32,000 bases of DNA from Candidatus Iainarchaeum sp. (GCA_016205145.1 JACQJH010000001.1:90001-122000), one strand, 5' to 3'. Positions 1,911 through 32,000 are shown, counted from the first letter of the stretch. Translations and numbers: made by a program. The notes: generated by a model from the sequence alone, not told the origin.

Positions 1911-2475
1911 TTTTTATTCCCGCCTTTTCAAGGAATCTGCGCACCCCGGCTTCCAGGCTTTTTTCCGCGCCCGCATTATTTATGCTGAAATCCGCCTTTT
2001 TAACCTTCTGTGAAAGCGGCATCTGCGCCCTGACGCGCTGGAGGGCCTGCTTTTCCGTCAGGCCTTTTTTTTCCAGCCTCGCGACCTGCTGGGTTTGCCT
2101 GCAGTAGACCGCAACGCTTTTGGAGAAGCAGTTTTCAAGCCTTGCCTCGAAAAGCAGTGGAACGTCGACAAAGATTATGGCGCATTTCCTGCGTTCCAGG
2201 GCGGAAAATTTTTTGAGCAGTTCCCTGAGCACGAGCGGGTGGAGTATGCGTTCAAGCCTTTCCCTCGCCTTTGCGTCGGAAAAGATTTTTTCGGCCAGCT
2301 TTTTCCTGTCATTCGAGCCGAACTCTTTTTTCACGCGCTTTTTGACTTCCGGCTTTTTGTGCAGCTGCGCGACTATTTCGTCGCAGTCAACGGTTTCAAA
2401 GCCCCTGCGTTGCAGGATTTTGAGTACGGTCGACTTGCCGCACGCTATGCCGCCCGTCAGCGCGATTGTCTGCAT
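1903..2475 (-). CDS. coaE: dephospho-CoA kinase, bacterial/eukaryotic type
   Basis: 190 aa. P-loop IALTGGIACGKST, followed by DCDEIV, ILHPLV and FVDVPLLFE in the order seen in CoaE. Confidence 0.85.
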   Translation of the reverse strand: MQTIALTGGIACGKSTVLKILQRRGFETVDCDEIVAQLHKKPEVKKRVKKEFGSNDRKKLAEKIFSDAKARERLERILHPLVLRELLKKFSALERRKCAIIFVDVPLLFEARLENCFSKSVAVYCRQTQQVARLEKKGLTEKQALQRVRAQMPLSQKVKKADFSINNAGAEKSLEAGVRRFLEKAGIKNV

Positions 2476-16813: not shown

Positions 16814-18424
16814 GTGGATCAAAACCTTCCAAAAGGCCAGTCCGCCATAGAATATCTTTTGCTGTTGGGCGCCGCGATTTTGATTGCCGCGGTTGTCGTT
16901 GCCTTGATTATTTTTGTGGGTTCCGGGGGCAAGCAGTCGGCGCAAAGAGGGTCGCAGACTGTTGCTGTAGCGCAGGGGAATCTTTCCAAATCCCTTGGCC
17001 TGCCAGGCCCCATCACCGACCGCGGCGGCGGAATTTTTGATTTGAAAAAGGATTTTGGCGCGAAAGGCGACGGGGTTTCCGACGATTATGAATCGTTCAT
17101 TGCTGCTGCGGCCAAGCTGAGCGGTTCGACTGACGCAACGCTTGTCATTCCTGCAGGGGACTATAAGATTGACCGGTACAAGATTTTGGCTGCGACTTCC
17201 GACGGCAGGCTTCCAAATGGCGTAACCGACATCAAGTTTTCCGGATGCAACGGCCTGGAAATTGTCGGCTTGGGAAAGGACGCATCGGGAAACTACAAGG
17301 CAAAAGTCGAGGTCAAGGGCGACTTTTACAGGTCGGCGGACCGCAGTGCCGTCAATGCCGCGGGCGTGACGGTGTGGAGTTCCAATTCCGGTTCGGTCAC
17401 GCCGTTTTATTTCGATCACTGTAACGGATTTTCCATTTCCGGCTTGGAATTGTACGGCAACAACGACAAGATGTCGCACGATCCGCGCGTCAGAGAACAC
17501 CCGTCAGGAATGGGCATTGCGACTTATGGCTGCAAAAATTATTCGATTTCCGACATTTTTGTGCACAACTTCCAGACGGACGGCATTTACCTTGGCGGCT
17601 CGGCAAGCCCCGTGGATTCGGGCGCAACCGTTGACGGCGTGGTTTCAAGCAGCAACGGCAGGCAGGGCCTCAGCATAATTCAGGTGAAAAACTCGACAAT
17701 AAAAAACAGCGTTTTCAAGGACACCGGCATTACGGGCGGAAGCGACACAGGATATAATCCGAGGGCCGGCGTTGACATCGAGCCGAACGTGAACGTCCCC
17801 AACATAACCGAAAATCTTGTTTTTGAAAACGACGAGTTCAGCAACAACCGCGGCTACCAGATTGTTTCAAGCGCTTATGTTGGCGGAATCGTGGTCAGGA
17901 ATTCAAGGGTTTTTTCGGGAAACCAGCGCAAGCTCGCCTATTTCAGGGTGAACGGCATTACAATCGAGGGCTCCGAATTCAAGACTTCTGCAAGGGAGTT
18001 TGCCCAGGACTGGGACAAGAGCGGATTCGGGGTCACTCTCATGGCGGGCGGAACCGCGCTTATAAAAAACAATCTCATAGAGGCATCCTCGTTGGCGTAT
18101 CCTGTGAAAACCGTTGGAATCCACAGGCCTTACGTGCACTTCTTTTCGGGAAGCGGGATAACCTTTGCGGGCAACAGAATTTCCACCGACTCAAGCTTTT
18201 TTTATCCCATTTCAGGGCAGGCTTATGACACCGCAATTTATTTGAACGTCGGCGAATCCTCGAACAACACTTTTTCGACCGGCATGACCGGCTTAAACCA
18301 TTTCGCAGTCGTTTACGGCCCGGCCACAAAAGTCGTTTCAGACGCGTTTTTGCCGCGGGACAATTTCAGGCCGCAGCCGGGATATGTTTGGACTGGCGCA
18401 GGCAACTCTTATTCGCAGAACTGA
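16814..18424 (+). CDS. class III (prepilin-type) signal peptide fused to a right-handed beta-helix, pectate-lyase-superfamily domain
   Basis: GTG start. N-terminus MDQNLPKG/QSAIEYLLLLGAAILIAAVVVALI (basic residue-Gly, then Q at +1, E at +5, then a hydrophobic helix). Followed by FDLKKDFGAKGDGVSDDYESF..VIPAGDY and repeated PbH1-like turns: NGFSISGLELYGNN, YSISDIFVHNFQTDGIYLGG, GLSIIQVKNSTIKNSVF, LVFENDEFSNN. Confidence 0.8.
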   Translation: MDQNLPKGQSAIEYLLLLGAAILIAAVVVALIIFVGSGGKQSAQRGSQTVAVAQGNLSKSLGLPGPITDRGGGIFDLKKDFGAKGDGVSDDYESFIAAAAKLSGSTDATLVIPAGDYKIDRYKILAATSDGRLPNGVTDIKFSGCNGLEIVGLGKDASGNYKAKVEVKGDFYRSADRSAVNAAGVTVWSSNSGSVTPFYFDHCNGFSISGLELYGNNDKMSHDPRVREHPSGMGIATYGCKNYSISDIFVHNFQTDGIYLGGSASPVDSGATVDGVVSSSNGRQGLSIIQVKNSTIKNSVFKDTGITGGSDTGYNPRAGVDIEPNVNVPNITENLVFENDEFSNNRGYQIVSSAYVGGIVVRNSRVFSGNQRKLAYFRVNGITIEGSEFKTSAREFAQDWDKSGFGVTLMAGGTALIKNNLIEASSLAYPVKTVGIHRPYVHFFSGSGITFAGNRISTDSSFFYPISGQAYDTAIYLNVGESSNNTFSTGMTGLNHFAVVYGPATKVVSDAFLPRDNFRPQPGYVWTGAGNSYSQN

Positions 18425-18483
18425 CGTTTGCCTTTTGTGCACTTGGGCGTGCCAAAGGATTTAATTTGTGTGAATGATATTTG

Positions 18484-20031
18484 ATGGTGAAACCGATGTT
18501 TTCCCGTGGCCAGTCCGCAATCGAGTATCTGCTGTTGCTTGGCGCCGCGATTTTGATTGCCGCGGTTGTCGTTGCCTTGATTTCTTTTGTGGGTTCGGGC
18601 GGAAAGACTTCGGCGCAGGAATCAGGCGTGCAGCAGAGGCTGGCAATGCAGAACCTTGCGGCTGTTGGGGGCATGGGTTTCTCCTATTCCTGTGTTGCTA
18701 ATGGTGTCTGCGAAGCCGATGAAACAATGCAGTCCTGTTCCGCGGACTGTGCTGGCAAGCCTTTCAGGCAGTACCTGCATTTTTATTCGGCGGAGGCGGG
18801 GGGTTCTGAGGTTTCTTCCGTGCCGGCGCCCATGCTTAACGTGCCCGCTTCGGGTTTGCGGCATTATATCTATGTCGAGCTTTCCGAAATGCACGGGCAT
18901 CTCAGTGTTTACCGTTCCGCCACCGTAAACAATGCGAATAACCGGTCTGTCGCGCTTTCACCCGGCGAAATCGACGCGCTGTTCAATCTTTACGGCGTGG
19001 AAACGGGCAATCCTGTTAGAGGGAAGAGCATGAACATGAGCATACTGCAGCGTGCCGACGTGCAGAAAATCCATCATGAACTTGCACAAGGCAATCCTGC
19101 GTATAATGCAAAGTACGGCAATGGCGGCCTGGAAACAGGGGTCGGGCTTGACGGTTCCGGAATGCCCGTTCTTGATGCTTCCGACAAGCTTGTGCCGGAC
19201 AGACCGGTACAGGATTACCAAGACGGCAAAACAATGCTGTGGCCGTTTTACTACAATGCCAGCGGCAAGCATAAGATGAGGGTTCTCTGGAACCTTAACA
19301 GCCCGGCGGTCAGGGAATATCTTGTGCGGTACGGCGTGAAAACCGCCTCTTTCAGTCCAAGCGGCGACCTGTTTATTGACAACACTATTTTTCCGGGCCA
19401 GGTGCTGGAGGATTATTCATATGTTTTTTCAGGTGCAAGGAACGGCCTTGCGGCGCATCTTTCCGGCATTACATTGGAAATTCGGGCAGAAATCGTGAAA
19501 CGGCTTGACGGAAAGGGGCTGATAATGAACGCTCTCAGGTTCACAAACTCCGACAATGAGATATTTTCTGATGCTGTTGTTGATTCCGGCCAGTTTGACG
19601 GTTTGATGGCCGAAAACCAGTTTTGGCGTGATGGCATTGCCATTGGCGGTTCTCCAAGGGGTGCGACGTCCGTTGCATGGTACCGGGATTTGACGCAGAA
19701 AATGAAATCAAAAGGCAAAAAGATTCTTTTTACGGCCTCCGGCTCCGGTTTTACGCGGGCTGATCCCTCAAAGATTTTGCCAGTTTGGTTATGGTTGCAC
19801 TTGGTTGCTGATGACAGCACGTATTTTCTATTGCCGGGCAATGGAGCCGATGGCGATTCGTTTGATAACCAGTTCCTTCCGTTTGTTTTTCCGCTCGGCT
19901 ATCCGCTTGACCAAGCACCGGTGCAGGACGGCAGTGTGTGGAGCAGGCGCTATGAGCGCGGCACGATTGTTTTTGACATTTCAAGCGGAAGGCTTGACGC
20001 CATAAGGTTCGAGGAAAACCCGCCCGGGTGA
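18484..20031 (+). CDS. class III (prepilin-type) signal peptide fused to a Cys mini-module and a GH-like domain; paralog of 26452-28209
   Basis: N-terminus M(VKPM)FSRG/QSAIEYLLLLGAAILIAAVVVALI; alternative ATG at 18496. 18541-18582 is 42/42 identical to 16868-16909. CVANGVCEADETMQSCSADC is followed by ~430 aa collinear with the 26452 gene (SGQFDGLMAEN, WLWLHLVADD, GYPLDQAPVQDGSVWSRRYERGTIVFD). The enzymatic family is not confidently named. Confidence 0.8.
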   Translation: MVKPMFSRGQSAIEYLLLLGAAILIAAVVVALISFVGSGGKTSAQESGVQQRLAMQNLAAVGGMGFSYSCVANGVCEADETMQSCSADCAGKPFRQYLHFYSAEAGGSEVSSVPAPMLNVPASGLRHYIYVELSEMHGHLSVYRSATVNNANNRSVALSPGEIDALFNLYGVETGNPVRGKSMNMSILQRADVQKIHHELAQGNPAYNAKYGNGGLETGVGLDGSGMPVLDASDKLVPDRPVQDYQDGKTMLWPFYYNASGKHKMRVLWNLNSPAVREYLVRYGVKTASFSPSGDLFIDNTIFPGQVLEDYSYVFSGARNGLAAHLSGITLEIRAEIVKRLDGKGLIMNALRFTNSDNEIFSDAVVDSGQFDGLMAENQFWRDGIAIGGSPRGATSVAWYRDLTQKMKSKGKKILFTASGSGFTRADPSKILPVWLWLHLVADDSTYFLLPGNGADGDSFDNQFLPFVFPLGYPLDQAPVQDGSVWSRRYERGTIVFDISSGRLDAIRFEENPPG

Positions 20032-20108
20032 ATTTTCGCCCAAGTCGGAATTCGGTGGCCCGGAAAGCTTTTTATATGGTTTTACACTATTTTCTATTGT
20101 GTTTTAAT

Positions 20109-20357
20109 ATGAATTTGACCGTCAATTTTTCCGGCCACGTTGAAGACGTAATTGAACGCCTCGTTGAAAAAGGCGTTGTCAAAACGAAATCCGAAGCGCT
20201 TCGGCTTGGCATTCTGAAGCTTGAAGAGCAGTATCTGCGCAGCCTTGACGCAGATGACCTGATTTTGGCTGAAAAGGCATGGGATGATTTCAAAGCAGGC
20301 AAGAACAAATCTCTGTCGGAAAGGGAGTTCTACTCTAAAACAGGCCTGAAAAAATGA
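20109..20357 (+). CDS. putative antitoxin (ribbon-helix-helix-like) of a RelE-family toxin
   Basis: 82 aa from ATG 20109; the track ORF starts at 20028. MNLTVNFSGHVEDVIERLVEKGVVKTKSEALRLGILKLEE has a strand-helix-helix pattern. Its stop overlaps the toxin start (ATGA, 20354-20357). Confidence 0.6.
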   Translation: MNLTVNFSGHVEDVIERLVEKGVVKTKSEALRLGILKLEEQYLRSLDADDLILAEKAWDDFKAGKNKSLSEREFYSKTGLKK

Positions 20358-20605
20358 GTTTTGAAGCGGTTTTTCTTGAATCTTTTGCCGATGACGTGGC
20401 AAGGCTTGACGGCAGCCAAAAAACGCTTGTTGAAAAAAGGCTCCGCAGGCTCACTGCAAACCCGTTTTCCGAAAAGCCACTTCACGGCCAGAAACGGTTT
20501 TGGGCTTCGAGGATCCTGAACCTGAGAATAATTTACCGCATTGAAGGGCAAAAAATATTTTTTGCCAGGGTTTCAAGCAGGAAAGACGTTTACAAAAACC
20601 TGTAG
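20354..20605 (+). CDS. relE: RelE/ParE-superfamily type II toxin
   Basis: 83 aa. FADDVARLDGSQKTLVEKRLRRLTANPF..PLHG....SRILNLRIIYRIEGQKIFFARVSSRKDVYK matches the RelE/StbE pattern (...RiiY.i......i..v.hRkdvY). Confidence 0.8.
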   Translation: MSFEAVFLESFADDVARLDGSQKTLVEKRLRRLTANPFSEKPLHGQKRFWASRILNLRIIYRIEGQKIFFARVSSRKDVYKNL

Positions 20606-20608
20606 CTG

Positions 20609-20642
20609 AAATTTTGGCAGGTTTGAAGACCTGCCAAAATTT
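20609..20642. terminator. perfect 14-bp hairpin between convergent stop codons (probable bidirectional terminator)
   Basis: aaattttggcaggt-ttgaag-acctgccaaaattt. It starts 4 nt after the relE stop (20603-20605) and ends 2 nt before the stop of the minus-strand gene (20644-20646). T-runs flank it on both strands. Confidence 0.6.
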
Positions 20643-20643
20643 T

Positions 20644-21639
20644 TCACGCAAGGATTTTTGGCACGAAGTCCGCCATTGTTTTCAGGCCGGCGCCCGCCGA
20701 GAATGCGACCGGAACCATGTTGACCGCGATCGCGGCCGTTGCCCTGTCGCCGTGAGTTCCGCCCGAGATTTTCATGTCGATTGGCGGCACGCCGTGGATT
20801 TTGACTGCGTCAAACGATTCCGCTTCCCCGATGCCGGCGCGGAAATTCATGGAAATTATTTCTTTTCCGTTCACTTTCGCCGAGGCAGTCTGCTTCACGC
20901 CGCGAACGCTTCCCATACTTATCGTTCCCCAGCTTAACGCAATCTCCTTGTCCGAGATTATCGGGCTGATTGTCTGGCTGAACTCGAAATCCTTAAAGCC
21001 AAGGCAGTGCGCTATCATTGAAAGCGATTCAGGCAGGCCGACGTGCCTGATTGTGCCTTCCGCAACCTTTTTGTCGAACTCTTCAACCGAAAGCGTGGAA
21101 CCGATTTTTTTCTGGAAGGGAACGCGCCTGTTCGAGGCGTCAATCTGCCTCGTGATTTCGATTTTTTCGATTTTCTGGCATGGCGCTGTAAGCATCAATG
21201 GCAATGCGTCCATTACAAAGCCGGGGTTGACTCCGACACCAAGCACGCTGACGTTGTTTTTGCCGGCGATTTTGTCCAAGCGCTCCGCGATTTTCCTGTT
21301 CTCGCCTATGGGGAAAGAAAGCTCTTCGGTTGTCGAAACCACGTTCAGGCCCGATTCAAGCGCTTCGATGATCTGCGGTTCTGCCTTGGCAAGGCTTGAA
21401 ACGGTTGTGTGAACAACAACGTCCGCTTTTGCCCCGGAGAAAACTTTTTTCGCGCTGTCAGAAACCGTTACGCCTGCACGTTTTCCATTGCACAGTTCTC
21501 CGGCATCCTTTCCGGCTTTTTGCGGGTCGATGTCAATCGCGCCAGCCAATTCAAGTGACTGCTTTTCAAGGCAAAGCCTCGCGGTTTCCATTCCAATAGT
21601 TCCCAAACCGTATTGAATGACCCTGATTTTTTTTGCCAT
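20644..21639 (-). CDS. DapB-like NAD(P)-binding oxidoreductase (2,4-diaminopentanoate / amine dehydrogenase-like family)
   Basis: 331 aa from MAKKIRVIQYGLGTIGMETARL (Rossmann GxGxxG) at ATG 21639, which is preceded by GGAGG. Also VVHTT, NVVSTTEE and C-terminal ISGGTHGDRATAAI. The gene is 26 nt downstream of the ThyX-like gene. Confidence 0.65.
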   Translation of the reverse strand: MAKKIRVIQYGLGTIGMETARLCLEKQSLELAGAIDIDPQKAGKDAGELCNGKRAGVTVSDSAKKVFSGAKADVVVHTTVSSLAKAEPQIIEALESGLNVVSTTEELSFPIGENRKIAERLDKIAGKNNVSVLGVGVNPGFVMDALPLMLTAPCQKIEKIEITRQIDASNRRVPFQKKIGSTLSVEEFDKKVAEGTIRHVGLPESLSMIAHCLGFKDFEFSQTISPIISDKEIALSWGTISMGSVRGVKQTASAKVNGKEIISMNFRAGIGEAESFDAVKIHGVPPIDMKISGGTHGDRATAAIAVNMVPVAFSAGAGLKTMADFVPKILA

Positions 21640-21665
21640 GCTTTTTTCCTCCCATTCCAAAAAAA

Positions 21666-23285
21666 TTATTTTTTGCCAATGCGCTCCAGCTTTTCATCCG
21701 CCTTCTTTTCCGCTTCCAGCCTTTCCAGGCCCGCGCCTTTCTCGTAGACGAATTTCATGAGTTCGAAGACAAGCGGGGTCGCCTTTTTCGCCTGATGGAA
21801 CATTTCGATTGAAACCCTTCGGTAGTCGGCGTGTCCCTGCGGCGTCGACCTCAGCTCAACCAAGTGGTACATTTCACGCGCGTTGAGAGTGAAATACCAT
21901 CTTATTTTGTACGCGAGCGGGACAACGTATTGTGCCTGCAACGGCATTTCCTTCGCGATTTTATCGTAAGTTTCCTTCGCTCCTGCCATTGCCTTTTCAA
22001 ATTCCTTCAAAACGCCCGCCTTTTCCAGTTCGGGATAAGTGTCATAGCCGAAGTTTGCCGTCAAAAGCTGGCGTTCCTGTGTAAGCTGGCGATGTCGGTG
22101 CAAGTCACGGAAGCCGCCGTAATTTGAGAGCAAGTCGAAAGTGTAGTATGCGTTTTCGAAGCTTCGCAAAGGCTTGTGCCTGCGGTTCTGCCTGTGCGCA
22201 AGAGATGCATGGATGACTTTGCGCTTTTCCTCTTCGCCCATTGCGGCAACGATTTTTTTGAGCTGGTGCAGGGGCTTGTCGCTGTGCGCGTAAAGCAGCG
22301 CGCAAACGATTTTGTTGTCGGCTTCCATGTCAAAGTCGACCAGTTCCACTTCCTTTGCCTGCTCCGCATGTTTGCCTGCAAGCAGTTCTTTTGCGGTTGC
22401 GTCAAGGTTTGCGTTCGCCTGCCTGAAAAAATCCTGTGTCGGGCCGCCGTATTTTCCGGCCGCGCGCTTGACGAAAGAAGGAATGTAAGTCAAAAGCTCT
22501 TCGTGCAATGAAGAAGCGATGCCGTTGATTTCCTTCAATGGCGAGGCGTGCATTTTGAGTATGAGGTATTCGAACGCCCTGCCATTGCCGTACAGGCCGA
22601 GGTTTGTCAGCGTTGAAGCAGGCAGGAGGCCGCGCAGGAGGTCGCAGGTTTTAGCCTTGATTGTCGACTTGTACGCGCGGTCGGTTGTCTCGGAGTCCTG
22701 CGGAAACCATTCCTCGGCCTGTGTTCTCACTTTCGGCACGAGTTCGGCGTACGTGCCGAACAGCAAATCGCACGTTTCCACGTAATCCTTTTCGAATGCC
22801 GACTGCATTATGCCAGGCTCGAGCAGGTACTGGTATCGGCCGCCCTCTTTCTCGTCAAAGTAAACGTAGCGCGTGCTTTTTTCCAGGGGGGAGAGGCCAA
22901 TGCGTGAATCCTCGAGGACTTTGCTTGCGATGATTGAAACCTTTTCGCATGCGACGTGCGCTCCGCCTAATTCCGCGACGGAATCGTCGCCGTAGCCGAC
23001 CAGAACGCGGTCGTAAAACTCTTCGGCTTTCTTGGTTGCGATTGCCTGCTGTTCTCCGTTTCCAAGTGAATAGTTGACGATTTCCCGGAAGCCGGATTCC
23101 TTGTCGGCAATGAATTCGTCGAGCAAAAGCCTGCGCAATGGTTTCGGCGAGCGCGAATAGCGCGAGAACAGTGCGCCTGAAACGACTTCGGGCAGGTTTT
23201 TGAGGACAAAGACGTTTTTGTCCATGTTCGAAAAAAACGGTTCCAGGATTTTCCGCTCTTCCGAGGAAAAAGAATTTTCCGCCAT
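21666..23285 (-). CDS. long-form ThyX-like (Thy1-fold) protein, putative FAD-dependent thymidylate synthase
   Basis: 539 aa. The C-terminal half has FRDLHRHRQLTQERQ and TLNAREMYHLVELRSTPQGHADYR, which align with the ThyX RHR motif and NxRxLxxxxxLR...H/Q region. N-terminal GALFSRYSRS suggests a second, degenerate copy. Confidence 0.6.
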   Translation of the reverse strand: MAENSFSSEERKILEPFFSNMDKNVFVLKNLPEVVSGALFSRYSRSPKPLRRLLLDEFIADKESGFREIVNYSLGNGEQQAIATKKAEEFYDRVLVGYGDDSVAELGGAHVACEKVSIIASKVLEDSRIGLSPLEKSTRYVYFDEKEGGRYQYLLEPGIMQSAFEKDYVETCDLLFGTYAELVPKVRTQAEEWFPQDSETTDRAYKSTIKAKTCDLLRGLLPASTLTNLGLYGNGRAFEYLILKMHASPLKEINGIASSLHEELLTYIPSFVKRAAGKYGGPTQDFFRQANANLDATAKELLAGKHAEQAKEVELVDFDMEADNKIVCALLYAHSDKPLHQLKKIVAAMGEEEKRKVIHASLAHRQNRRHKPLRSFENAYYTFDLLSNYGGFRDLHRHRQLTQERQLLTANFGYDTYPELEKAGVLKEFEKAMAGAKETYDKIAKEMPLQAQYVVPLAYKIRWYFTLNAREMYHLVELRSTPQGHADYRRVSIEMFHQAKKATPLVFELMKFVYEKGAGLERLEAEKKADEKLERIGKK

Positions 23286-23350
23286 TGCCCCACCAGACTA
23301 AATTAAAGCAATGGCAATGGTTAAATATTTCACTTTTGATTATTGTTTTC

Positions 23351-26300
23351 ATGCCCCATAAAACCGGCCGGCCGCGCCATTATTCCGACAGGGCCATTAA
23401 GCGGCCCGGAAGAGGCTTTTCGCATGGCCAGGGCTCTTTGGACCGCCTGATTCTCCTCGGAATCGTGGTTTTGGTTTTCGCAGTCATAATGCTTGTTGCC
23501 TTTTCCCGTCCGCATGAAAGGGCTGACGGGAAAGTGCAGGCCTATTATGCGGGGAATGGGCGGAGTGGCGTTCGTGAAGTGTTCGACTTTTTGGGCGTGC
23601 TAAAATTTGGCATGAATTCCGGTTCCGGCGGCCCTGAAATTAAGCCCGCCGTCATTCCGGGTGACGTGAACCAAAGCAAAAAGCCGGATGTCGTGCCCGC
23701 AACAGGCACTGACAAGGAACCCGTGATTCGGGCCTGCAGCAATGACTGTTCTTCCGCCGGCTTGAGGCAGTGTTCCGGTTCCGGCTATAATGTCTGCGGA
23801 AACTTTGACGAAGACGACTGCCTTGAATGGGGTTCCTGGACAGGCTGTCCTGACGGCCGGGCGTGCGCCAACGGAAACTGCGAAGTTTCTCGCGGGGTTT
23901 TTTCTTCTGAGGGCCTTGTTTCATACTGGCGTTTTGATGATTTGTCGGATTCGTTTGGTTCAAATGATTTGGTTATGTCCGGCAATGTTGTTGCGGGTTC
24001 TTCGCCTGATTGCGCTTTCGGCGGCTGCCTTGCCCTTGATTCTTCTTCCGGGCAGGCCGAAGCCAGGGGTTTGCCGGATTCGGGCGGTTTGTCTGATTTG
24101 TCGATTGCGTTGCGCGTCAAGTTTGGCGCCGGTGGCGATACTGCCACCCGGGCCTGGGTGGCGGGCTGGGCCGATGCGCAGGGCCAGGGCGTAGGTTTTT
24201 ACCGCTATGGCGCCAGCCAGCTTGTTTTTTTCGCCAACGGCGCGGATGGCAGTTTGACTGATTGCTGGAGTTCCGCCTTGAATGACGGCAAATGGCACCG
24301 GCTGGCGGGCGAGGCGTCTGAACAGCACATAACCTTGTTTGTGGACGGGTTTCCTCTTTGTTACAAGGCGCGTTCCGGCGCATTTCTTTCCGGCGCCAGC
24401 TTCAAGGCCGGCGGCCCGGTTTCCCCATCTGGCAGCGTTCTTGTTGACGAGCTGATGGTTTTCGACCGTTCGTTCACGCAGTTCGTTCACCCGCAGGCCG
24501 GTTACACTTTGCTGGGCGCTTTGCCATCCAACGCGCTTGGCATGAGGGGGCCGGTTATAGGCGCCGGCGGCGCGGTGCCGGGCGTGTACCTGTTTGACGG
24601 CAAAATATACTTTTTTTCCAGCATGGACGCATACAACTATTATAGCCTTTGCAGTTACGCCGTTTCAGGCAGCTCCGCGCGCTCTTTTGCTGTCGAGTAC
24701 GGTGATCGTTACAATACCTTCTTCGTGGACGGGGGCTTGGTGTGTGCGTGGCCGGCAAACCGCGGGCTCGCCGTTGCGCGTCCGCCTGACGACGGCTATG
24801 CCAATGAAGGGGCGGCCGCAACCACGCGGCTGCAGGCGGGCACGTTCCTGTCAACGGCCGGCCTTGACGGGCTGCCCGTGCACCGCAAGCGCCTAATTAC
24901 CGCGGGCTGGCTCAGCCCTGATTTGAAGTCCTTAAAGGAAGACCTTGGCGTGTACGACGAGTCCGGATTCGACGGCATCGCGATAGACGACGAGGTATTC
25001 TTCAATGAACCGGGCAGGCCGTGGCCATTGAATATATTTCAGAAGACCGCCTTAAGCACGGGCCGCAGGTACCGGGAAGGGCAGTTTGACGCCGTCGCCG
25101 GAGAAGTCGGGCAGGCCCTGGGAAAAGCGAAGAACCTGAAGCATAATTACATGGTACTCTATCTGGGCTGGACGCATTCGTCGGTTCTCGGCAACCACCT
25201 GAGCCCGGTGCTCGATGCGGACGGGATACCGGTATTCGACGCCAACGGCCTTAAGCTCCATAACCTGACTGCGGACGAGCAATGGCAAATCATTGCCGGC
25301 AACGCGCGGGTTGCAGCAGGGCTGGCGAAAAAGGCCGGCCTTGAAGGAATCATAATTGATACTGAACAGAACTATTCGGTCAACACCCAGGACCCCGGTT
25401 ACATTGCTTACAAGGGTTCTCCGCTTACCCTCAGCTACGAACAATCCGTGCCGGTCAATCCGGCGCCGTTCGCCGAGTACGAGGCCGCGGCCCGCCAGCG
25501 GGGGCAACAATTGGCATCCGCGATGGCCGAGGAGTATCCGGACATGACCGTGCTCTTCCATTTTGCGTACAGCCTGTACAGCGACAAGGACAGAAAGGAA
25601 ACAGGCGGAATCGACCAAAAGAGTTATTTGGAACGGTATACCCTACTGCCTGCCTTCATCGACGGCATGCTCGAAGGCGCTCCGGGCATCCGGTTCATTG
25701 ACGGCGACGAGTGGACCTACACCATCCGGCGGCGCGGGCAACTGCTTGACCGCAAGAAGCATTTCCTTGAAAACGCGCTTGAAAAATCCGCCACAAACAC
25801 GCCCGGGAACCGACAGATTGAATACGGTCAAGAGCTGTGGGCTACCGTGCTTGAGCAGACGCCCGATGATGCAGCTTGGGTTGATGTAAACTTTATTCCC
25901 GAAGATGAGATTGAATTGGCTAAGCAGTTCGGATACGGAATCCGCGACGCCTTGCGCGCAAGCGAGGGCATGGTTCTGATTTGGCACGCACAGCGTCCGC
26001 CGTGGCCGGTCTACCGGACTGCAAGAAATGGGCAGAGGTACCGCGCCCAGGGCGTGATGCCCGATTCTTTCAGACAGGCGATAAAGGATGCGCGCAAGAA
26101 TGTCGAGGGCAACACCAATCCGGTGATGCCGGTTGTCGGTTTTGTTTCGGCAGGCACGGGGGAAAAAGTTTCAATCACTTTGCCTGAGGCAAGCGACGCC
26201 GACGGGGATTCCTTGATTACCTGGGTTGACGGCCTGCCGGAAGGCGCGTCTTACGAGCCGCTTTCCCGCACAATCGAATGGCCGAACCCGCGCGCGGGAA

Positions 26301-26377
26301 TCTACTCCCTGTCTTACGGCGCTTCCGACGGCTTTTTGGAAGCCGCGGCACAGTTCAGCCTTGTGATTTACGGCTAG
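23351..26377 (+). CDS. large secreted multidomain protein: possible degenerate class III signal, Cys-rich module, LamG/ConA-like lectin domain, ~550-aa putative TIM-barrel-like domain, C-terminal Ig/cadherin-like domain
   Basis: 1008 aa from ATG 23351; the track start 23285 would abut the divergent gene. FSHG/QGSLDRLILLGIVVLVFAVIMLV. CSNDCSSAGLRQCSGSGYNVCGNFDEDDCLEWGSWTGCPDGRACANGNC. LamG-type GLVSYWRFDDLSDSFGSNDLVMSGN...WHRLAG...LFVDG...VDELMVFDRSF. GFDGIAIDDE and GLEGIIIDTEQNY. C-terminal ITLPEASDADGDSLITWVDGLPEGASYEP...GIYSLSYGASDG. Confidence 0.8.
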   Translation: MPHKTGRPRHYSDRAIKRPGRGFSHGQGSLDRLILLGIVVLVFAVIMLVAFSRPHERADGKVQAYYAGNGRSGVREVFDFLGVLKFGMNSGSGGPEIKPAVIPGDVNQSKKPDVVPATGTDKEPVIRACSNDCSSAGLRQCSGSGYNVCGNFDEDDCLEWGSWTGCPDGRACANGNCEVSRGVFSSEGLVSYWRFDDLSDSFGSNDLVMSGNVVAGSSPDCAFGGCLALDSSSGQAEARGLPDSGGLSDLSIALRVKFGAGGDTATRAWVAGWADAQGQGVGFYRYGASQLVFFANGADGSLTDCWSSALNDGKWHRLAGEASEQHITLFVDGFPLCYKARSGAFLSGASFKAGGPVSPSGSVLVDELMVFDRSFTQFVHPQAGYTLLGALPSNALGMRGPVIGAGGAVPGVYLFDGKIYFFSSMDAYNYYSLCSYAVSGSSARSFAVEYGDRYNTFFVDGGLVCAWPANRGLAVARPPDDGYANEGAAATTRLQAGTFLSTAGLDGLPVHRKRLITAGWLSPDLKSLKEDLGVYDESGFDGIAIDDEVFFNEPGRPWPLNIFQKTALSTGRRYREGQFDAVAGEVGQALGKAKNLKHNYMVLYLGWTHSSVLGNHLSPVLDADGIPVFDANGLKLHNLTADEQWQIIAGNARVAAGLAKKAGLEGIIIDTEQNYSVNTQDPGYIAYKGSPLTLSYEQSVPVNPAPFAEYEAAARQRGQQLASAMAEEYPDMTVLFHFAYSLYSDKDRKETGGIDQKSYLERYTLLPAFIDGMLEGAPGIRFIDGDEWTYTIRRRGQLLDRKKHFLENALEKSATNTPGNRQIEYGQELWATVLEQTPDDAAWVDVNFIPEDEIELAKQFGYGIRDALRASEGMVLIWHAQRPPWPVYRTARNGQRYRAQGVMPDSFRQAIKDARKNVEGNTNPVMPVVGFVSAGTGEKVSITLPEASDADGDSLITWVDGLPEGASYEPLSRTIEWPNPRAGIYSLSYGASDGFLEAAAQFSLVIYG

Positions 26378-26417
26378 CGGCCTATAACCGTTTGGCATTC
26401 TTTCATGGGCATGCTTT

Positions 26418-26492
26418 CTGTTTTAAAAAACCTTTCAGGGCAATCGTTTTTATGCATCCAAGCGACGCCATCAAGGGAACCGCGTCAAAAAG
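26418..26492 (+). repeat. direct repeat copy A: promoter plus first 13 codons (partner 28245-28320)
   Basis: ctgttttaaaaaacctttcagggcaatcgtttttatgcatccaagcgacgccatcaagggaaccgcgtcaaaaag is ~84% identical to copy B, with an identical 21-nt core cgtttttatgcatccaagcga. The TATA-like ttttaaaaaa (26421-26430) lies ~26 nt upstream of the conserved ATG at 26452. Confidence 0.85.
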
Positions 26493-28209
26493 ATTTTTCA
26501 TGCCGCATTTGAAACCGGTTGTTGTCTGCGCATTTGTGTTGCTTGTTTTGCTTTCCGGTTGCACCGCCACAAAAAGCAAAGGCGTGGAAAAGCCGGTTGA
26601 TTCCGACAAAAACTTTTTGGATTCAAACCAAGCCAAGTCCGCGCCCGAAACTGGCGGGCCGCGACAGCCGCCAACCACGGAATTGGTTGCTGAACAACCG
26701 GACGCCAATGTTCCGGATGCAAACGCCGGCGCACCCGACGTGAATGCAGCGGCTGCTGTCGTGTTTTGTAACCGGAACGGCGCCTGCGACACAAACGAGT
26801 CCGCGGTTTCCTGTCCGGCCGATTGTGCCATTCTTTCCGGAGGCGGAGGAGGCGGCAATTCGCCACAGCCGCCGTCAGGAAACGATAGCGGTTCGTGCAA
26901 TTCGGACGGCGCATGCAACGGAAACGAGGACACAGCTTCATGCCCTGCTGACTGCAGTGTAAGGCAGTTCAGGCATTATTTGCGGTTTTATGCTTTGGAT
27001 TACTATAATCGGTTTTCAACAAAGCCGCCGGCGCCGGAAGGGCTGGTTGAATTCACCATCACGCAGGGCACGCCTTTTGGCAACCTGCAGGATTATACTC
27101 ATTTTAATGTGACGGATTCCGGCCATGTTGTTTTGACAACTTCCACTGCGCCCAAAACTCTTGTTGCGTTGAGCCAAAGCGAGCTTGACGGCTTGTTTGC
27201 GCAGTATGGTTTTGGCGGGGATAAAAACAACATCTATTCTGGCGTGATTGCAAGGGCTGAAGTCGGGAAAATCCATGAGGAACTTGTAGAACGCCATCCG
27301 GAGCTTTTTCCGAACGGCACTGAATTGTTTGTCGGCGCCGTCATAGGGCCGGACGGGTTGCCCGAGCTCGTGGACAACTTTCCGGTCAGGGAAAGAAGCG
27401 ACATTGCCGACTACCAGCTTGGCAAAACAATGGTTTACCCGCTTCCATATTCGCCGGTCGGCTACGGGCGGTACCGGACGCTTTGGAATCACGGCAGCTG
27501 GGCGGTCAGGGTATATCTTGCAAGAAGGGCCAATAAGCTGGTGAATGGCGTTCCAGGCGTGGAGAATATTTTTTTGGATAACGTGCAATTGCCGGCTTAT
27601 ATCAAATATCTTGGCTCCCGTGTTGGTTCGGTTCCGGTGCCAAATTATGTTTCGCCCGGAAGCAGGGATGAACAGTTTGCTGTTTATGCGAACAATTTTG
27701 TTTCGGTTCTTACTGCCGTTCGCGTAAAAACCGGCGCAAAAATGCTTCTTAACGGTTTGTATGAAGTGAAGGCTAACCAAAGCATTTTTTTTCAAAAACT
27801 AATTGCGTCCGGCCAGTTTGACGGCCTTATGACGGAAAACGGGTTTTTTGCTGACGGCGTGGAAAACAATTTGGGCGGCAGCGCGGCAAGCGTGCAATGG
27901 TACTGGGATCAGGTGCAGTGGTTGAAGCAAAACGGCAAAAACGCGGTTTTTTTGGCGGGCGGGAAGGACGCTTCGAAGGCATCCAAGGCCTGGCTTTGGG
28001 TGCATTTAGTTGCTGACACCAATGTTTTCTTTTCGACCAATCCCAATGAACATTTTGACGTTTACGATTCTCCTTTGGGGTATCCTCTTGACCAGGCTCC
28101 GGTAAAAAACGGCAGCGTGTGGAGCAGGCGCTACGAGCGCGGCACGATTGTCTTTGACGTTTCGGGCGGAAGGCTTGACGACATAAAGTTTGTCGAAGGC
28201 CCGGCATAG
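26452..28209 (+). CDS. lipobox-anchored GH-like protein with two Cys mini-modules; paralog of 18484-20031
   Basis: MHPSDAIKGTASKRFFMPHLKPVVVCAFVLLVLLSGC; alternative start at 26500. FCNRNGACDTNESAVSCPADCA, a GGGGGG linker and CNSDGACNGNEDTASCPADCS. The body is collinear with the 18484 gene (SGQFDGLMTEN, WLWVHLVADT, GYPLDQAPVKNGSVWSRRYERGTIVFD). Confidence 0.8.
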   Translation: MHPSDAIKGTASKRFFMPHLKPVVVCAFVLLVLLSGCTATKSKGVEKPVDSDKNFLDSNQAKSAPETGGPRQPPTTELVAEQPDANVPDANAGAPDVNAAAAVVFCNRNGACDTNESAVSCPADCAILSGGGGGGNSPQPPSGNDSGSCNSDGACNGNEDTASCPADCSVRQFRHYLRFYALDYYNRFSTKPPAPEGLVEFTITQGTPFGNLQDYTHFNVTDSGHVVLTTSTAPKTLVALSQSELDGLFAQYGFGGDKNNIYSGVIARAEVGKIHEELVERHPELFPNGTELFVGAVIGPDGLPELVDNFPVRERSDIADYQLGKTMVYPLPYSPVGYGRYRTLWNHGSWAVRVYLARRANKLVNGVPGVENIFLDNVQLPAYIKYLGSRVGSVPVPNYVSPGSRDEQFAVYANNFVSVLTAVRVKTGAKMLLNGLYEVKANQSIFFQKLIASGQFDGLMTENGFFADGVENNLGGSAASVQWYWDQVQWLKQNGKNAVFLAGGKDASKASKAWLWVHLVADTNVFFSTNPNEHFDVYDSPLGYPLDQAPVKNGSVWSRRYERGTIVFDVSGGRLDDIKFVEGPA

Positions 28210-28244: not shown

Positions 28245-28320
28245 CTGTTTTAAAAATCCTTTTCCGGCCATTCGTTTTTATGCATCCAAGCGAAGCAATC
28301 CGGGCTTCCGCGTCAAAAAG
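28245..28320 (+). repeat. direct repeat copy B: promoter plus first 13 codons of coaBC
   Basis: ctgttttaaaaatccttttccggccattcgtttttatgcatccaagcgaagcaatccgggcttccgcgtcaaaaag. The TATA-like ttttaaaaa (28248-28256) lies ~28 nt upstream of ATG 28280. Confidence 0.85.
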
Positions 28321-29482
28321 CCTTTACGGAAAGCTCATAGTGTTGGGAGTTTCATCAAGCATTGCCGCAGTGAAGACTGTTGAAATTGCAAGGGAACTGA
28401 TCAGGCACGGCGCGGAAGTGCAGGCAGTGATGTCAAAGGGCGCGGAAGACATCATTGCGCCGGGGGCGCTGGAGTTTGCCACGGGGAAGCCTGTCATAAC
28501 GCATCTCAGCGGAATGGTCGAGCACGTCGACCTGTTCGGAGCGCATGGAAAAGCCGATTTGCTTTTGTTGTGCCCTGCAAGCGCAAACGTGATTGGAAAA
28601 ATCGCGAATGGCATAGCTGATGATGCCCTGACAACCATTGCAATGACTGTTGTTGGGGTGAAAAAGCCAGTCCTGGTCTGCCCGGCAATGCATTTGGAAA
28701 TGTGGCAGAACACTGCCGTCAGGGTGAACGTCGAAAAGCTTGGCGTGCTGGGCGCGGAATTCGTGCCGGCGAAAAGCCTTGAAGGCGCGGAAAAAATCGC
28801 GGACAAGGAAACGATTGTGCTGTTTGTGGAACGGGCGCTTTCCGGCAAAAGGCTTGCAGGCAAAAAGGTTGTCGTTTGCGCCGGCGCAACGCGCGAGGAA
28901 ATCGATCCCGTGCGCGTGCTGACAAACAAGGCATCGGGAAAAACCGGCGAGGAAATCGCAAAAGAGGCTTTCAGGCAGGGCGCACAAACCACACTTATAC
29001 ATAATCGGGATTGTTTTGTTTCCGGCATCAAATGCGTGCAGGCGCAAACCATCGAGGAATTCCGCAAGGCAATCCTTTCGGAGCTTGAAGGCGCGGATGT
29101 TTTCGTCTCGGCGGCGGCAATCGGCGATTTTGTAGTGGAAAAGGCGAAGGACAAGCTTGCTTCGGAAAAAGGCGTTGAATTGAAGTTCAGGCCCGCCCCT
29201 AAAATCCTCGCGGAAGTCGTGAAGAAATTTCCCGATTTGTTCGTTGTCGCGTTCAAGGCGGAAACGAACAAGGGGACGGAAGAGCTTGAAAAAATCGCAA
29301 AGGAAAAGCTGAAGGAACTGAAGCAGGGCTTTGTGGTTGCGAACGACGTGGCACATGGTGGAATGGGAACGGATGAAAATTCGGTTTTGATCGTCGGCAA
29401 AAACTTTTCGGAAAGCGTTTCAGGAAAGAAAAGCCTGATTGCCAGAAAAATCGTGGAAAAAATTGAATGCGGTCTGCCATAA
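28280..29482 (+). CDS. coaBC: bifunctional phosphopantothenoylcysteine decarboxylase / phosphopantothenate-cysteine ligase
   Basis: 400 aa from MHPSEAIRASASKSLYGKLIVLGVSSSIAAVK. CoaC region: PASANVIGKIANGIADDALT. CoaB region: VCAGATREEIDPVRVLTNKASGKTG and AAAIGDF. The start is chosen at the conserved ATG of repeat B rather than the track start 28190. Confidence 0.9.
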   Translation: MHPSEAIRASASKSLYGKLIVLGVSSSIAAVKTVEIARELIRHGAEVQAVMSKGAEDIIAPGALEFATGKPVITHLSGMVEHVDLFGAHGKADLLLLCPASANVIGKIANGIADDALTTIAMTVVGVKKPVLVCPAMHLEMWQNTAVRVNVEKLGVLGAEFVPAKSLEGAEKIADKETIVLFVERALSGKRLAGKKVVVCAGATREEIDPVRVLTNKASGKTGEEIAKEAFRQGAQTTLIHNRDCFVSGIKCVQAQTIEEFRKAILSELEGADVFVSAAAIGDFVVEKAKDKLASEKGVELKFRPAPKILAEVVKKFPDLFVVAFKAETNKGTEELEKIAKEKLKELKQGFVVANDVAHGGMGTDENSVLIVGKNFSESVSGKKSLIARKIVEKIECGLP

Positions 29483-29596: not shown

Positions 29597-31009
29597 ATGC
29601 CGGCCGCGGTTGGAGTTGATTCGTTGAAAAAAAGCATGTTTTTCGTTTTGCTGTTTTTTGGTGTTGTTGTTTCGGGCTGCCTTCAAACTGACTCTGAAAA
29701 AGCCGCCATTGAGCTTTCAGCTTCGACTGTTGAAGGAAAACTCGCCAAGACCCTGATGGAATCGCTGAAAAAGACAGGCGAGTGCAGCGTATCGGATTAT
29801 GCCGGGGTTGCCGGCCCGGCCAACCCGCTGATAAGAAACATGGGCTTTAACGTTTCTCTTCCGACACAGGAGACCGAAGCCGCCGAATTGGTTGAAAATG
29901 CAAAAGAATGCAATGTGCAATTGCTGCGGAACGTTTTGGAAGTCGAAAAGGACAAAAAATACCAGGTCAACTACACTGCAAAAGTTGACAGTTCCTGCAA
30001 ATACTCCGGCCTAAAACCGGTTTTGTCGGCTTATATTTTGACGATTTCGGTCGACCTTGAGGAAAAAACAGCGGTTGTTGAAAAGGGAAAGCTTAAGGAC
30101 AGCATTGCACAGCAGGTATCAGAGTTCCAGCCGGCTTTTATGCTCATGGGAAAGTGCGCGGCTCCAATACTGCTCGGCATTGGATTTTTCGGGGACTTTT
30201 TGGGTTCAGACAGCGGCCCGGGCTTAGACGGCGGTCCAGACGAAGGGGAAAAGATAGCTTACGGCTTTGACGCTTTCTGGGATGATTCGAAACAAAACCC
30301 GATTCAGCTGTCGTGGAATCACGCCCAAAGTGACGGCCAGTACTATGTCGCAATTGAAATGTGGGCCACCGGCAACAGTTCGCCGCTTGGTTCAATTGAA
30401 ACGACCATAGAGAACTTAAAGGACGGCCCGGCGTTCCCGTTGGGCCACGTTTTCAGTTATGACCTGGACGGCGGGGAAATTTATTATGGCGGGCAGCTGT
30501 CATACCCGCACGAATTCAAGGTCGATGCCTATCTTTTGGACAGTGAATACAGCATTGTGGAAAAGTTCGGCTACAAGGAATTTTCAATTGGCGCGCCCCA
30601 ACAGCAGGAGGCGCCGGATGCAGCAGGCGTTGTTTCGAATTTTGTTGCAAGATGGGACGCCGAAGACAGCCAGAACCCCCTGAAGTTTACATGGGATTTT
30701 GTTCCGCAGGGCGGCCAGTATTTTGTGGCGCTTGACATGTGGAATACCGGCAACAGTTCGCCGCTTGGTTCGATTGAAATGACCATAGAGCGGTTAAAGG
30801 AGGGCTCGCCGTTCCCGTTGGGCCATGTTTATGCCGCGGAAGACGGAAGCGGCTCGCTTTATTGGGGCGGGCAATACACTTATCCGGACGTGTTCAGGAT
30901 ACACGCATACCTCTTGGACGAATCATATGATTTGGTCGGGGAAACAGCGTATGTTGAATTGACAAGAAACAATGCTGACGAAAGCCCGACATCGGTTCCC
31001 ATCGGATGA
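29597..31009 (+). CDS. lipobox protein with a C-terminal tandem 126-aa repeat
   Basis: 470 aa. ...KKSMFFVLLFFGVVVSGC is a signal plus lipobox; an in-frame TTG at 29624 is an alternative start. Two repeat units share W(D/N)xxQxxGQY(Y/F)VAx(E/D)MWxTGNSSPLGSIExTIExLK(D/E)GxxFPLGHV...YxGGQxxYPxxFxxxAYLLD. Confidence 0.75.
   Translation: MPAAVGVDSLKKSMFFVLLFFGVVVSGCLQTDSEKAAIELSASTVEGKLAKTLMESLKKTGECSVSDYAGVAGPANPLIRNMGFNVSLPTQETEAAELVENAKECNVQLLRNVLEVEKDKKYQVNYTAKVDSSCKYSGLKPVLSAYILTISVDLEEKTAVVEKGKLKDSIAQQVSEFQPAFMLMGKCAAPILLGIGFFGDFLGSDSGPGLDGGPDEGEKIAYGFDAFWDDSKQNPIQLSWNHAQSDGQYYVAIEMWATGNSSPLGSIETTIENLKDGPAFPLGHVFSYDLDGGEIYYGGQLSYPHEFKVDAYLLDSEYSIVEKFGYKEFSIGAPQQQEAPDAAGVVSNFVARWDAEDSQNPLKFTWDFVPQGGQYFVALDMWNTGNSSPLGSIEMTIERLKEGSPFPLGHVYAAEDGSGSLYWGGQYTYPDVFRIHAYLLDESYDLVGETAYVELTRNNADESPTSVPIG
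30260..30964 (+). repeat. tandem intragenic repeat, two units (30260-30589 and 30638-30964), period 378 nt
   Basis: Core blocks at 30371-30452 and 30749-30830 are ~88-90% identical at the nucleotide level (ggcaacagttcgccgcttggttc.attgaaa.gaccatagag...gttcccgttgggcca.gttt). Confidence 0.8.
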
Positions 31010-31239: not shown

Positions 31240-32000
31240 TCACTGGCAGCCGCACGTGCCGTCAGCGTTCGGCGCGGTCGAGCAGACGCCGAGCTTATTG
31301 TCCGGGGTAATACACACGATTTTGTTTCTTGCCCCGACCTGGAAGCCGGTGGTTGGCCTATGCCCTCTGTAGCTAAGCAATACGTCTCCGCCCAGCTCAA
31401 TTTGCTTCGCGTCGAGAAAAATATTGCTTTTGCGGCCAACGTAACCGCTTGCCCCATTATTTTCCATGGTAATGCCGGCATAATCATTTGAGCCGGCACT
31501 GCCGGACGGCGCAACAAACTGTTCGTTGCCCTGCTGTCGCAGTTCTATTCTATCGGCACTCACTGAGATACTTGAGTACAAAATGTTTCCGTCTGTCAGG
31601 GGTTGTTTCCGGTCTTCCATGTAAATCCCCCTCTGCACGTGATTTGGCATCCCAGTATTAAGCGATGAGTTCAAGCGAATATATGTAAAACCGTCGGCAT
31701 TTTTCGTCGCTATTTTGGTTGGAATGTCGGCATTTGTGCTGCCAAAATAGACCGAGTTTCTAAGCGTTTCGTTCGCCGCGTTCGGCCCGGCAACGCCCAT
31801 GTGCCCTTGTATGCCGCTGCCCGTGCCAAAGATGAGGCCAGCGTAACCGTCGTTTTTCGTGTTGGTTATTCTGAGCGGCGGGTATGTTTGGTCGGATTCT
31901 TTTATGTCGAGTTTTACTTCCGGTGTTGTGGTTCCGATTCCGATTTTGCCGGTTCTGTCAACGAATAATCTGTCTTTTTGCACCCAGAGGTCCCTGATTG
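31240..32000 (-). CDS. tail-fibre-like GIGTT-motif protein, paralog of 10986-11948; 5' end beyond the window
   Basis: The reading frame stays open to the window edge (..IRDLWVQKDRLFVDRTGKIGIGTTTPEVKLDIKESDQTYPPLRITNTKNDGYAGLIFG...). The C-terminal CITPDNKLGVCSTAPNADGTCGCQ has the same 4-Cys motif as the paralog. The Met at 31983 in the track is internal, judged from the paralog alignment. Confidence 0.7.
   Translation of the reverse strand, partial: IRDLWVQKDRLFVDRTGKIGIGTTTPEVKLDIKESDQTYPPLRITNTKNDGYAGLIFGTGSGIQGHMGVAGPNAANETLRNSVYFGSTNADIPTKIATKNADGFTYIRLNSSLNTGMPNHVQRGIYMEDRKQPLTDGNILYSSISVSADRIELRQQGNEQFVAPSGSAGSNDYAGITMENNGASGYVGRKSNIFLDAKQIELGGDVLLSYRGHRPTTGFQVGARNKIVCITPDNKLGVCSTAPNADGTCGCQ
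31796..31995 (-). repeat. right arm of the inverted repeat pair (partner 11217-11416)
   Basis: See the left arm: ~90% identity over 200 nt in inverted orientation. Confidence 0.85.

Follow-up and report, generated by a model that had tools for sequence, protein, structure and literature searches.

To our knowledge, the GH168/GHL15 lineage of glycoside hydrolases has so far been characterised only in marine fucoidan degraders. The described GH168 enzymes (Fun168A, PbFucA and Rho5174; structures 8YA6, 8RG3-5, 9F9V, 9JOC and 9NHF), which correspond to Pfam GHL15, are endo-α-1,3-L-fucanases of marine Bacteroidota and Planctomycetota. They consist of a TIM barrel with a small C-terminal β subdomain and follow a retaining mechanism with an Asp/Glu pair (PMC12534559, PMC11685898). 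Another system of comparison is the bindosome of Sulfolobales, in which solute-binding proteins bear class III signals (bioRxiv 10.64898/2026.04.22.720090). Here we describe a 32,000-nucleotide (nt) stretch of archaeal DNA (GCA_016205145.1, JACQJH010000001.1:90001-122000; hereafter the window), in which the region at 16814-28209 encodes four secreted proteins: a right-handed β-helix protein, two paralogs (A and B), and a protein of 1008 amino acids (aa) with a LamG domain. Like the polysaccharide-utilisation loci and carbohydrate-active enzyme clusters of Bacteroidota, the region contains several secreted glycan-related proteins within ~11 kb. Unlike those loci, it has no SusC/D-like transporter, regulator or conserved gene order; housekeeping and toxin–antitoxin genes are interleaved, and promoter-like boxes precede individual genes. 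We consider it probable that the region is a series of independently transcribed genes for surface-anchored, glycan-directed Diapherotrites proteins, lying among housekeeping genes and a mobile RelE/RHH pair, and is not an operon or a conserved cluster.

The encoded proteins were identical to proteins of an NCBI metagenome-assembled genome (locus tags HY394_00540-HY394_00575) that bears the name 'Candidatus Diapherotrites archaeon'. The organism is thus a DPANN archaeon, in agreement with the guess of a small-genome archaeon in the initial annotation of the window. In the public annotation, these genes appear as hypothetical proteins, a β-helix repeat protein and a RelE/ParE toxin. The gene content proposed for 16.8-28.2 kb was recovered at the same coordinates in an open reading frame listing and in domain scans, and export or anchor signals were found in all four of the proteins described as secreted. 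The carbohydrate-related folds and domains comprised GH168/GHL15-like TIM barrels, a pectin-lyase-type β-helix and LamG; each component is a new and divergent representative of a kind already known. The label 'putative glycan-active' gained strength for the paralogs, which match GH168/GHL15 with the catalytic pair intact, and is reasonable for the β-helix and LamG proteins. The original observation was largely correct and has been partly confirmed.

The features of the two paralogs are:

18484..20031, plus strand: paralog A, 515 aa (HY394_00545), with a class III signal, a linker, one four-Cys mini-module, a GH168/GHL15-like TIM barrel and a C-terminal β subdomain
18691-18750, plus strand: four-Cys mini-module of A, read from the sequence
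19378-19380, plus strand: predicted nucleophile D299 of A (family/9F9V alignment)
19612-19614, plus strand: predicted acid/base E377 of A (family/9F9V alignment; N349 is also conserved)
26452..28209, plus strand: paralog B, 585 aa (HY394_00575), with a lipobox, a Pro/Ala/Asp-rich linker, two four-Cys mini-modules and a GH168/GHL15-like domain
26560-26562, plus strand: lipobox Cys37 of B (LLSGC)
26767-26826 and 26896-26955, plus strand: four-Cys mini-modules of B, read likewise
27577-27579, plus strand: predicted nucleophile D376 of B (family alignment)
27835-27837, plus strand: predicted acid/base E462 of B (family alignment)

A and B were 37% identical (E=2e-79), which upholds their description as two paralogous glycoside hydrolase-like proteins, one with a pilin-type signal (RG/QSAIEYLLLLG in A; the slash marks the predicted processing site) and one with a lipobox (LLSGC in B). 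Among 1.84 billion cluster representatives scanned exhaustively with HMMER there were 62 relatives (44 below 1e-30), so the family is very rare. A word-indexed homolog search with paralog A found at least 5 proteins, and a 5-sequence profile found no further relatives in such a search, so that the exhaustive HMMER scan was needed. Family members occurred in DPANN archaea, bacteria of the candidate phyla radiation (CPR), Sedimentisphaerales and Clostridia from non-marine metagenomes; two GHL15-like copies per genome were common. The four-Cys module (C-x4-G-x-C-x8-C-x2-DC, 20 aa), present once in A and twice in B, was also found in at least 7 further family members at varying positions. The Cys-rich module of the LamG protein differed (8 Cys, ~50 aa) and the β-helix protein had none. 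The initial annotation had Cys-rich mini-modules shared by three of the four proteins; this was overstated, since only A and B have the same four-Cys module.

A profile of 46 family sequences matched PDB entries 9F9V (Rho5174; E=8.2e-13), 9JOC and 9JOF (~1e-6) and 9NHF (6.6e-6). Because entry 9NHF carries the two titles 'GHL15 protein' and 'family 168 glycoside hydrolase', we treat GHL15 and GH168 as one lineage. In the alignment to 9F9V, the Asp of the family motif FxDN and the Glu of xEN fell on chain residues D155 and E231. Their spacing of 76 is also that of D152 and E228, the catalytic residues published for Rho5174 (PMC11685898). The catalytic Asp was invariant (46/46), and the Glu and an Asn on β5 were conserved in at least 90% of the members, both window paralogs included. 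An AlphaFold2 (AF2) model built from the 46-sequence alignment had a predicted local distance difference test (pLDDT) value of 89.5 and a predicted template modelling score (pTM) of 0.91. It consisted of alternating strand/helix elements with C-terminal strands at 389-420 (the β subdomain), and the Asp, Asn and Glu lay at the C-terminal ends of strands 204-208, 255-258 and 282-286. The top 12 PDB matches of this model in Foldseek were all GH168 (E 1e-10 to 1e-7), followed by other TIM barrels at ~1e-3, and GH168 enzymes were the sole confident structural matches of the paralogs. A model from 5 sequences had been poor (pLDDT 57.5), with only generic TIM barrels in the fold search, and was superseded by the 46-sequence model. 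Single-sequence PDB searches with the paralog, 1008-aa and β-helix proteins returned marginal matches only.

The paralogs thus resemble GH168 in the (β/α)8 barrel with its C-terminal β subdomain, in the aligned catalytic Asp on β4 and Glu on β6, and in the retained β5 Asn. They differ in an N-terminal half that is ~75-100 residues longer and divergent, in having a pilin-type signal or a lipobox as anchor, in their four-Cys mini-modules and in their location outside polysaccharide-utilisation loci. We predict that A and B are glycosidases of the GH168/GHL15 type, divergent but with the catalytic machinery retained (D299/E377 and D376/E462, respectively). By analogy with the GH168 endo-fucanases, they most likely cleave an α-linked polysaccharide, which need not be fucan, by retaining double displacement. 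The nucleophile would be the Asp at the end of β4 (D299 in A, D376 in B) and the acid/base the Glu at the end of β6 (E377 in A, E462 in B). The analysis thereby supplies concrete candidate catalytic residues, and if the paralogs are active, the reach of GH168/GHL15 extends to groundwater-type DPANN archaea and to CPR bacteria.

The β-helix gene lies upstream of paralog A and has an N-terminal segment in common with it:

16814..18424, plus strand: right-handed β-helix protein, 536 aa, GTG start (MBI4052507.1; Pfam Beta_helix E=2.6e-10)
16835..16944, plus strand: class III signal and N-terminal hydrophobic helix segment of the β-helix gene, a direct repeat 85% identical (nt) to 18508-18617 in A

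The presence of a β-helix protein, already proposed, was supported by an above-threshold Beta_helix match (40.6 bits, cutoff 25.9). Pect-lyase_RHGA_epim scored 25.4 bits, below its cutoff of 27. The N-terminal cap, which resembles AlgE4 and polygalacturonases, was the sole part that matched solved structures, and matches in PHROG were of the generic tailspike type. We considered a 'YG..HDP' stretch as an active-site motif of AlgE/AlgG epimerases and do not claim it, as no alignment covers the stretch. The protein probably depolymerises or binds a polysaccharide.

The class III N-terminus of the β-helix protein reads KG/QSAIEYLLLLG (KG/QSAIEYLLLLGAAILIAAVVV), and that of A reads RG/QSAIEYLLLLG. 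Both have a short charged N-region, a [KR]G site, an acidic residue at +5 and a hydrophobic helix of ~20 aa; the pilin-type signal of the β-helix protein is a correction to the initial annotation. The 110-nt signal segment is 85% identical (nt) between these otherwise unrelated genes. Class_IIIsignal (PF04021) scored 16.7 bits for the β-helix protein and 18.8 bits for A, below the cutoff of 23.7. A scan of metagenomes with the pattern GQ[ST]AIEYLLL gave 25 loci, and since the motif nearly always started a pilin of 33-140 aa, we regard it as a genuine pilin N-terminus. In B, the lipobox VLLVLLSGC (Cys37) follows a hydrophobic stretch. Family members elsewhere were always surface-directed; they bore Sec signals, lipoboxes or pilin N-termini, the latter either of the archaeal type or bacterial (N_methyl). 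Judging from these signals, A and the β-helix protein would be cut after the Gly by a prepilin peptidase and held by the pilin-type helix, either in the membrane or within a type-IV-like filament. B would be lipid-anchored at Cys37, and the linkers and four-Cys modules may act as spacers between the cell and the catalytic domains.

The arrangement is similar to the Sulfolobales bindosome, where a large ectodomain likewise stands behind a pilin-type signal and helix and the genes lie away from the pilus-assembly locus (bioRxiv 10.64898/2026.04.22.720090). It differs in that the cargo is enzyme-like (GH168-like or β-helix), that there is no adjoining ABC (ATP-binding cassette) transporter and that processing and filament incorporation are predictions from the sequence. 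The 85%-identical 110-nt signal on two unrelated genes and the recurrent pilin-type N-termini in archaeal and bacterial family members led us to a bolder and rather unlikely hypothesis, in which the pilin-type N-terminus serves as a display segment that can be exchanged between proteins. The β-helix, GH168-like and perhaps LamG proteins would then be processed like pilins, be mounted on a type-IV-like filament or at its base, and cut polysaccharides of a partner or of the environment. If this were true, a tiny DPANN cell would have an enzyme-bearing appendage.

For the proteins of the region in general, we infer a biological role in scavenging extracellular or partner glycans. The same anchoring might instead serve the archaeon itself, with the enzymes acting like autolysins, and not in feeding or attack, to trim or turn over the S-layer, pilus glycans or exopolysaccharide of the producing cell as it grows or assembles filaments. 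The proteins are attached to their producer by a pilin helix or lipid and are not released, and there is a precedent in Cwp19, a GHL-family TIM-barrel enzyme encoded in a cell-wall polymer locus, which acts on the cell's own wall (PMC5765458). We nevertheless judge this improbable: the window has no glycosyltransferase, S-layer or pilus-assembly genes, and the patchy, rare occurrence of the family across unrelated phyla fits transferred accessory functions better than core envelope maintenance.

The largest of the four proteins is composed as follows:

23351..26377, plus strand: orphan surface protein, 1008 aa (HY394_00570), with an anchor, an 8-Cys module, LamG, ~500 aa of no recognised fold and a weak Ig-like domain
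23735-23887, plus strand: 8-Cys module, seen in the sequence
~24089-24481, plus strand: LamG (Laminin_G_3)
~26111-26335, plus strand: weak Ig-like domain (Big_9)

The LamG domain was confirmed by Laminin_G_3 (31.7 bits for the whole protein, 35.7 for the isolated segment, cutoff 27.6). The Ig-like domain named alongside it was present as a weak match, Big_9 remaining under its cutoff (E=0.0014, 19.9 bits, cutoff 23.6). A possible TIM barrel had also been proposed for this protein and found no sequence support: for the central ~500 aa, neither Pfam nor PDB sequences gave a match at E≤10, and the probability in hhalign with the profile of the GHL15-like family was 1%. Among 5.8 billion proteins, the 1008-aa protein matched only itself, and it was not homologous to the large secreted proteins that adjoin family gene P0003. 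Its N-terminus HG/QGSLDRLILLG (23426-23470) matches the pattern G/QSAIEYLLLLG of the β-helix protein and A and may be a third pilin-type (class III) signal; Pfam makes no call. The protein probably binds glycan. LamG and PKD are among the binding-type modules with which family members combine. The metagenomic member P0026 (1315 aa), for example, has DUF7266, two four-Cys mini-modules, a GHL15-like domain and a strong LamG match (E=7e-21).

The initial annotation suggested, from domain content, that the four genes could be a toolkit with which an episymbiotic archaeon binds and remodels the envelope of a partner; we took this to mean one coordinated set, co-inherited and co-expressed. Much of what is described above is compatible with this: the four proteins are all directed to the surface, three of them with glycan-related folds, the β-helix protein and A have an anchor segment in common, P0026 fuses GHL15-like and LamG domains, and the organism belongs to DPANN. 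Moreover, the genes form two pairs, each co-oriented and closely spaced. The idea of a single locus was examined in seven loci of other lineages that bear a relative of the paralogs, using tblastn of all window proteins over ±10 kb. These loci came from two related archaeal lineages (L004/L011 and L005/L010), Paceibacterota, Sedimentisphaerales and a Clostridia MAG. Only the GHL15-like gene was matched; no homologs of the β-helix or LamG proteins were found within ±10 kb in any of the seven. The neighbours of the GHL15-like gene in relatives were tRNA synthetase, RFC, Cdc6, ribosomal-protein and SecDF genes. The four genes were therefore not seen to travel together, and the outcome named beforehand as refuting the toolkit, genes scattered or independently absent in relatives, was the one obtained.

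A closer relative pointed in the same direction. A 1465-bp contig (L012, ENA ERZ5996431) was 94% identical (nt) to the 3′ end of A and continued directly into a second A-type gene instead of the RHH-RelE pair. This second gene was 72% identical (nt) and had the same pilin signal and Cys module. The coverage of the contig was 1.4, and its first 414 nt, which encode an unrelated membrane segment, were unmatched to the window, so that either a rearrangement or an assembly chimera is possible. The ThyX gene, used as a further synteny query in JGI metagenomes, gave no match.

Secreted genes were about as frequent outside the region as inside it (4/17 and 4/8, respectively; Fisher p=0.36). Since four more of them flank the region (8409-10781, 10986-11948, 29597-31009 and 31240->32000), it is not a distinct island. 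A TATA-like box was present ~22-35 nt upstream of each start, a spacing that suggests leaderless, separately initiated transcripts. With an orphan 1008-aa protein, separate promoter-like boxes, a likely terminator, housekeeping genes and a toxin–antitoxin pair interrupting the set, a different arrangement in the 94%-identical relative and no test result pointing to a partner envelope as the substrate, we regard the toolkit as a doubtful interpretation. For annotation, this advises caution: consecutive secreted genes in genomes of this kind need support from synteny or expression before they are called an operon-like toolkit.

Several observations weigh against our preferred reading of the region as independently transcribed genes for surface-anchored, glycan-directed proteins. 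Co-orientation and short spacers permit read-through from the β-helix gene through A to RHH-RelE, and from the LamG gene through B to coaBC. The relatives in the synteny comparison are distant (29-37% identity), with no complete sister genome among them, and the P0026 fusion mildly supports a functional relation of paralog B to the LamG gene beside it. No prepilin peptidase or pilus-assembly genes were found in the 32-kb window. The paralogs score below the Pfam threshold for GHL15 (PF14885; A, 14-15 bits; B, 21.3 bits; cutoff 27), in which they depart from GH168. The match had E<1e-3 in 34 of the 46 family members and exceeded 27 bits in some (P0009, 38.3; P0020, 40.1), which places the window paralogs, as judged by their sequences, at the edge of the GHL15 family. 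Finally, template modelling (TM) scores to GH168 structures were 0.45-0.53 at 12-17% identity, and the profile match leaves the N-terminal ~200 residues of the domain unmatched; for these reasons fucan specificity is not transferable.

The strong divergence from characterised GH168 enzymes and the sub-threshold Pfam scores might also mean that the paralogs are catalytically dead adhesins, in which the glycosidase-like fold only binds glycans, and family members are indeed joined to binding-type modules such as LamG and PKD. We hold this to be highly improbable given the invariant Asp and the conservation of the Glu and the β5 Asn in at least 90% of 46 diverse members, A and B among them.

Two further repeats touch the genes of A and B:

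19887..20022, plus strand: 3′ end of A, a repeat of the 3′ end of B at 28068-28203, 82-86% identical (nt) over the last ~45 codons
26421..26497, plus strand: 77-nt element that comprises TATA-like box TTTTAAAAAA, the start codon of B (ATG, 26452) and its first 16 codons; copy at 28249-28325 before coaBC, 79% identical

Third-position identity was 63-80% in the 3′ tract and ~13-60% in the rest of the A/B alignment, the remaining parts of the genes being ~31-63% identical. This difference led us to conclude that partial gene conversion has acted on the C-terminal β subdomain. The 77-nt element has a 21-nt exact core that occurs twice, against 0 expected. As a result, B (a lipoprotein) and the unrelated cytoplasmic coaBC product both begin with MHPS(D/E)AI(K/R)..., and the element looks like a duplicated promoter and start segment. 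In our reading, the set changes by duplication, partial gene conversion and the swapping of N-terminal anchor segments. For the surface repertoires of small genomes, the region offers an example of duplication, partial gene conversion and the reuse of anchor and promoter segments.

Between paralog A and the LamG gene lie four genes and a hairpin. The first two genes and the hairpin are:

20109..20357, plus strand: RHH/ParD-like antitoxin, 82 aa (HY394_00550; NCBIfam ParD-type, weak, E=0.0036)
20354..20605, plus strand: RelE/ParE-family toxin, 83 aa (ParE_toxin 30.5 bits, cutoff 23; named RelE/ParE family toxin at NCBI)
20612..20645, no strand: hairpin TTTTGGCAGGT / ACCTGCCAAAA with a T-run after it, lying where the RelE and dehydrogenase genes converge, read from the sequence

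The RelE/RHH toxin–antitoxin pair was correctly identified in the initial annotation, as shown by the ParE_toxin score (30.5 against 23 bits) and the 4-nt overlap of the two genes. A TATA-like box, TTTTTATAT, lies ~35 nt upstream of the RHH gene, and the hairpin is likely a bidirectional terminator. The pair resembles type II RelE/ParE-RHH modules, with a small antitoxin gene upstream, the 4-nt overlap, a promoter-like box of its own and a terminator, and nothing in it is unusual. It is absent at the corresponding position in the 94%-identical relative and appears to be an independent insertion.

The two remaining genes are housekeeping genes outside the surface set:

20644..21639, minus strand: 331-aa Ord/DapB-like NAD(P) dehydrogenase (Pfam DAP_DH_C at E=2e-34; NCBIfam Ord at 265 bits, under its cutoff of 400)
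21666..23285, minus strand: ThyX-type thymidylate synthase with two domains, 539 aa (two stretches matched by Pfam Thy1, E=2e-39)

Gene calls and Pfam/NCBIfam matches agree with the earlier statement that the RelE/RHH pair and two housekeeping genes on the opposite strand interrupt the four secreted genes. The usual single-domain ThyX has ~220-250 aa; the protein encoded at 21666-23285 is a fused double-domain form with two Thy1 stretches. A phage or mobile origin was considered and rejected, as PHROGs gave only generic tailspike-type β-helix matches and a viral fold library nothing specific. RNA gene scans found no Rfam families or tRNAs in the window.

Some of the secreted genes flanking the region are themselves repeated. 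The 320-aa lipoprotein encoded at 10986-11948 and the product of 31240->32000 are paralogs on opposite strands, 85% identical over 259 nt (inverted repeat 11212-11470 / 31742-32000). Both bear 'DRLFIDRTG(R/K)IGIGTT.PE.KLDI' and have a weak match to phage tail-fibre families (PHROG E=3.6e-4). The lipoprotein encoded at 8409-10781 (790 aa) has an architecture duplicated within the protein, contains many Cys-rich modules and matches PKD weakly. Its N-terminal region resembles a 1188-aa lipoprotein encoded ~5 kb from the GHL15-like gene in locus L010, and its Cys modules are also fused C-terminally to the GHL15-like domain in P0009. The 470-aa lipobox protein at 29597-31009 had no family match and contains a tandem duplication of a ~125-aa domain (30334-30452 / 30712-30830, 85% nt identity over 119 nt). 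Genes of the coenzyme A pathway are split over the window (1431-2475 and 28280-29482) and comprise a cytidylyltransferase-like (PPAT-type) gene, coaE and coaBC, which suggests that coenzyme A biosynthesis is retained in this DPANN genome.

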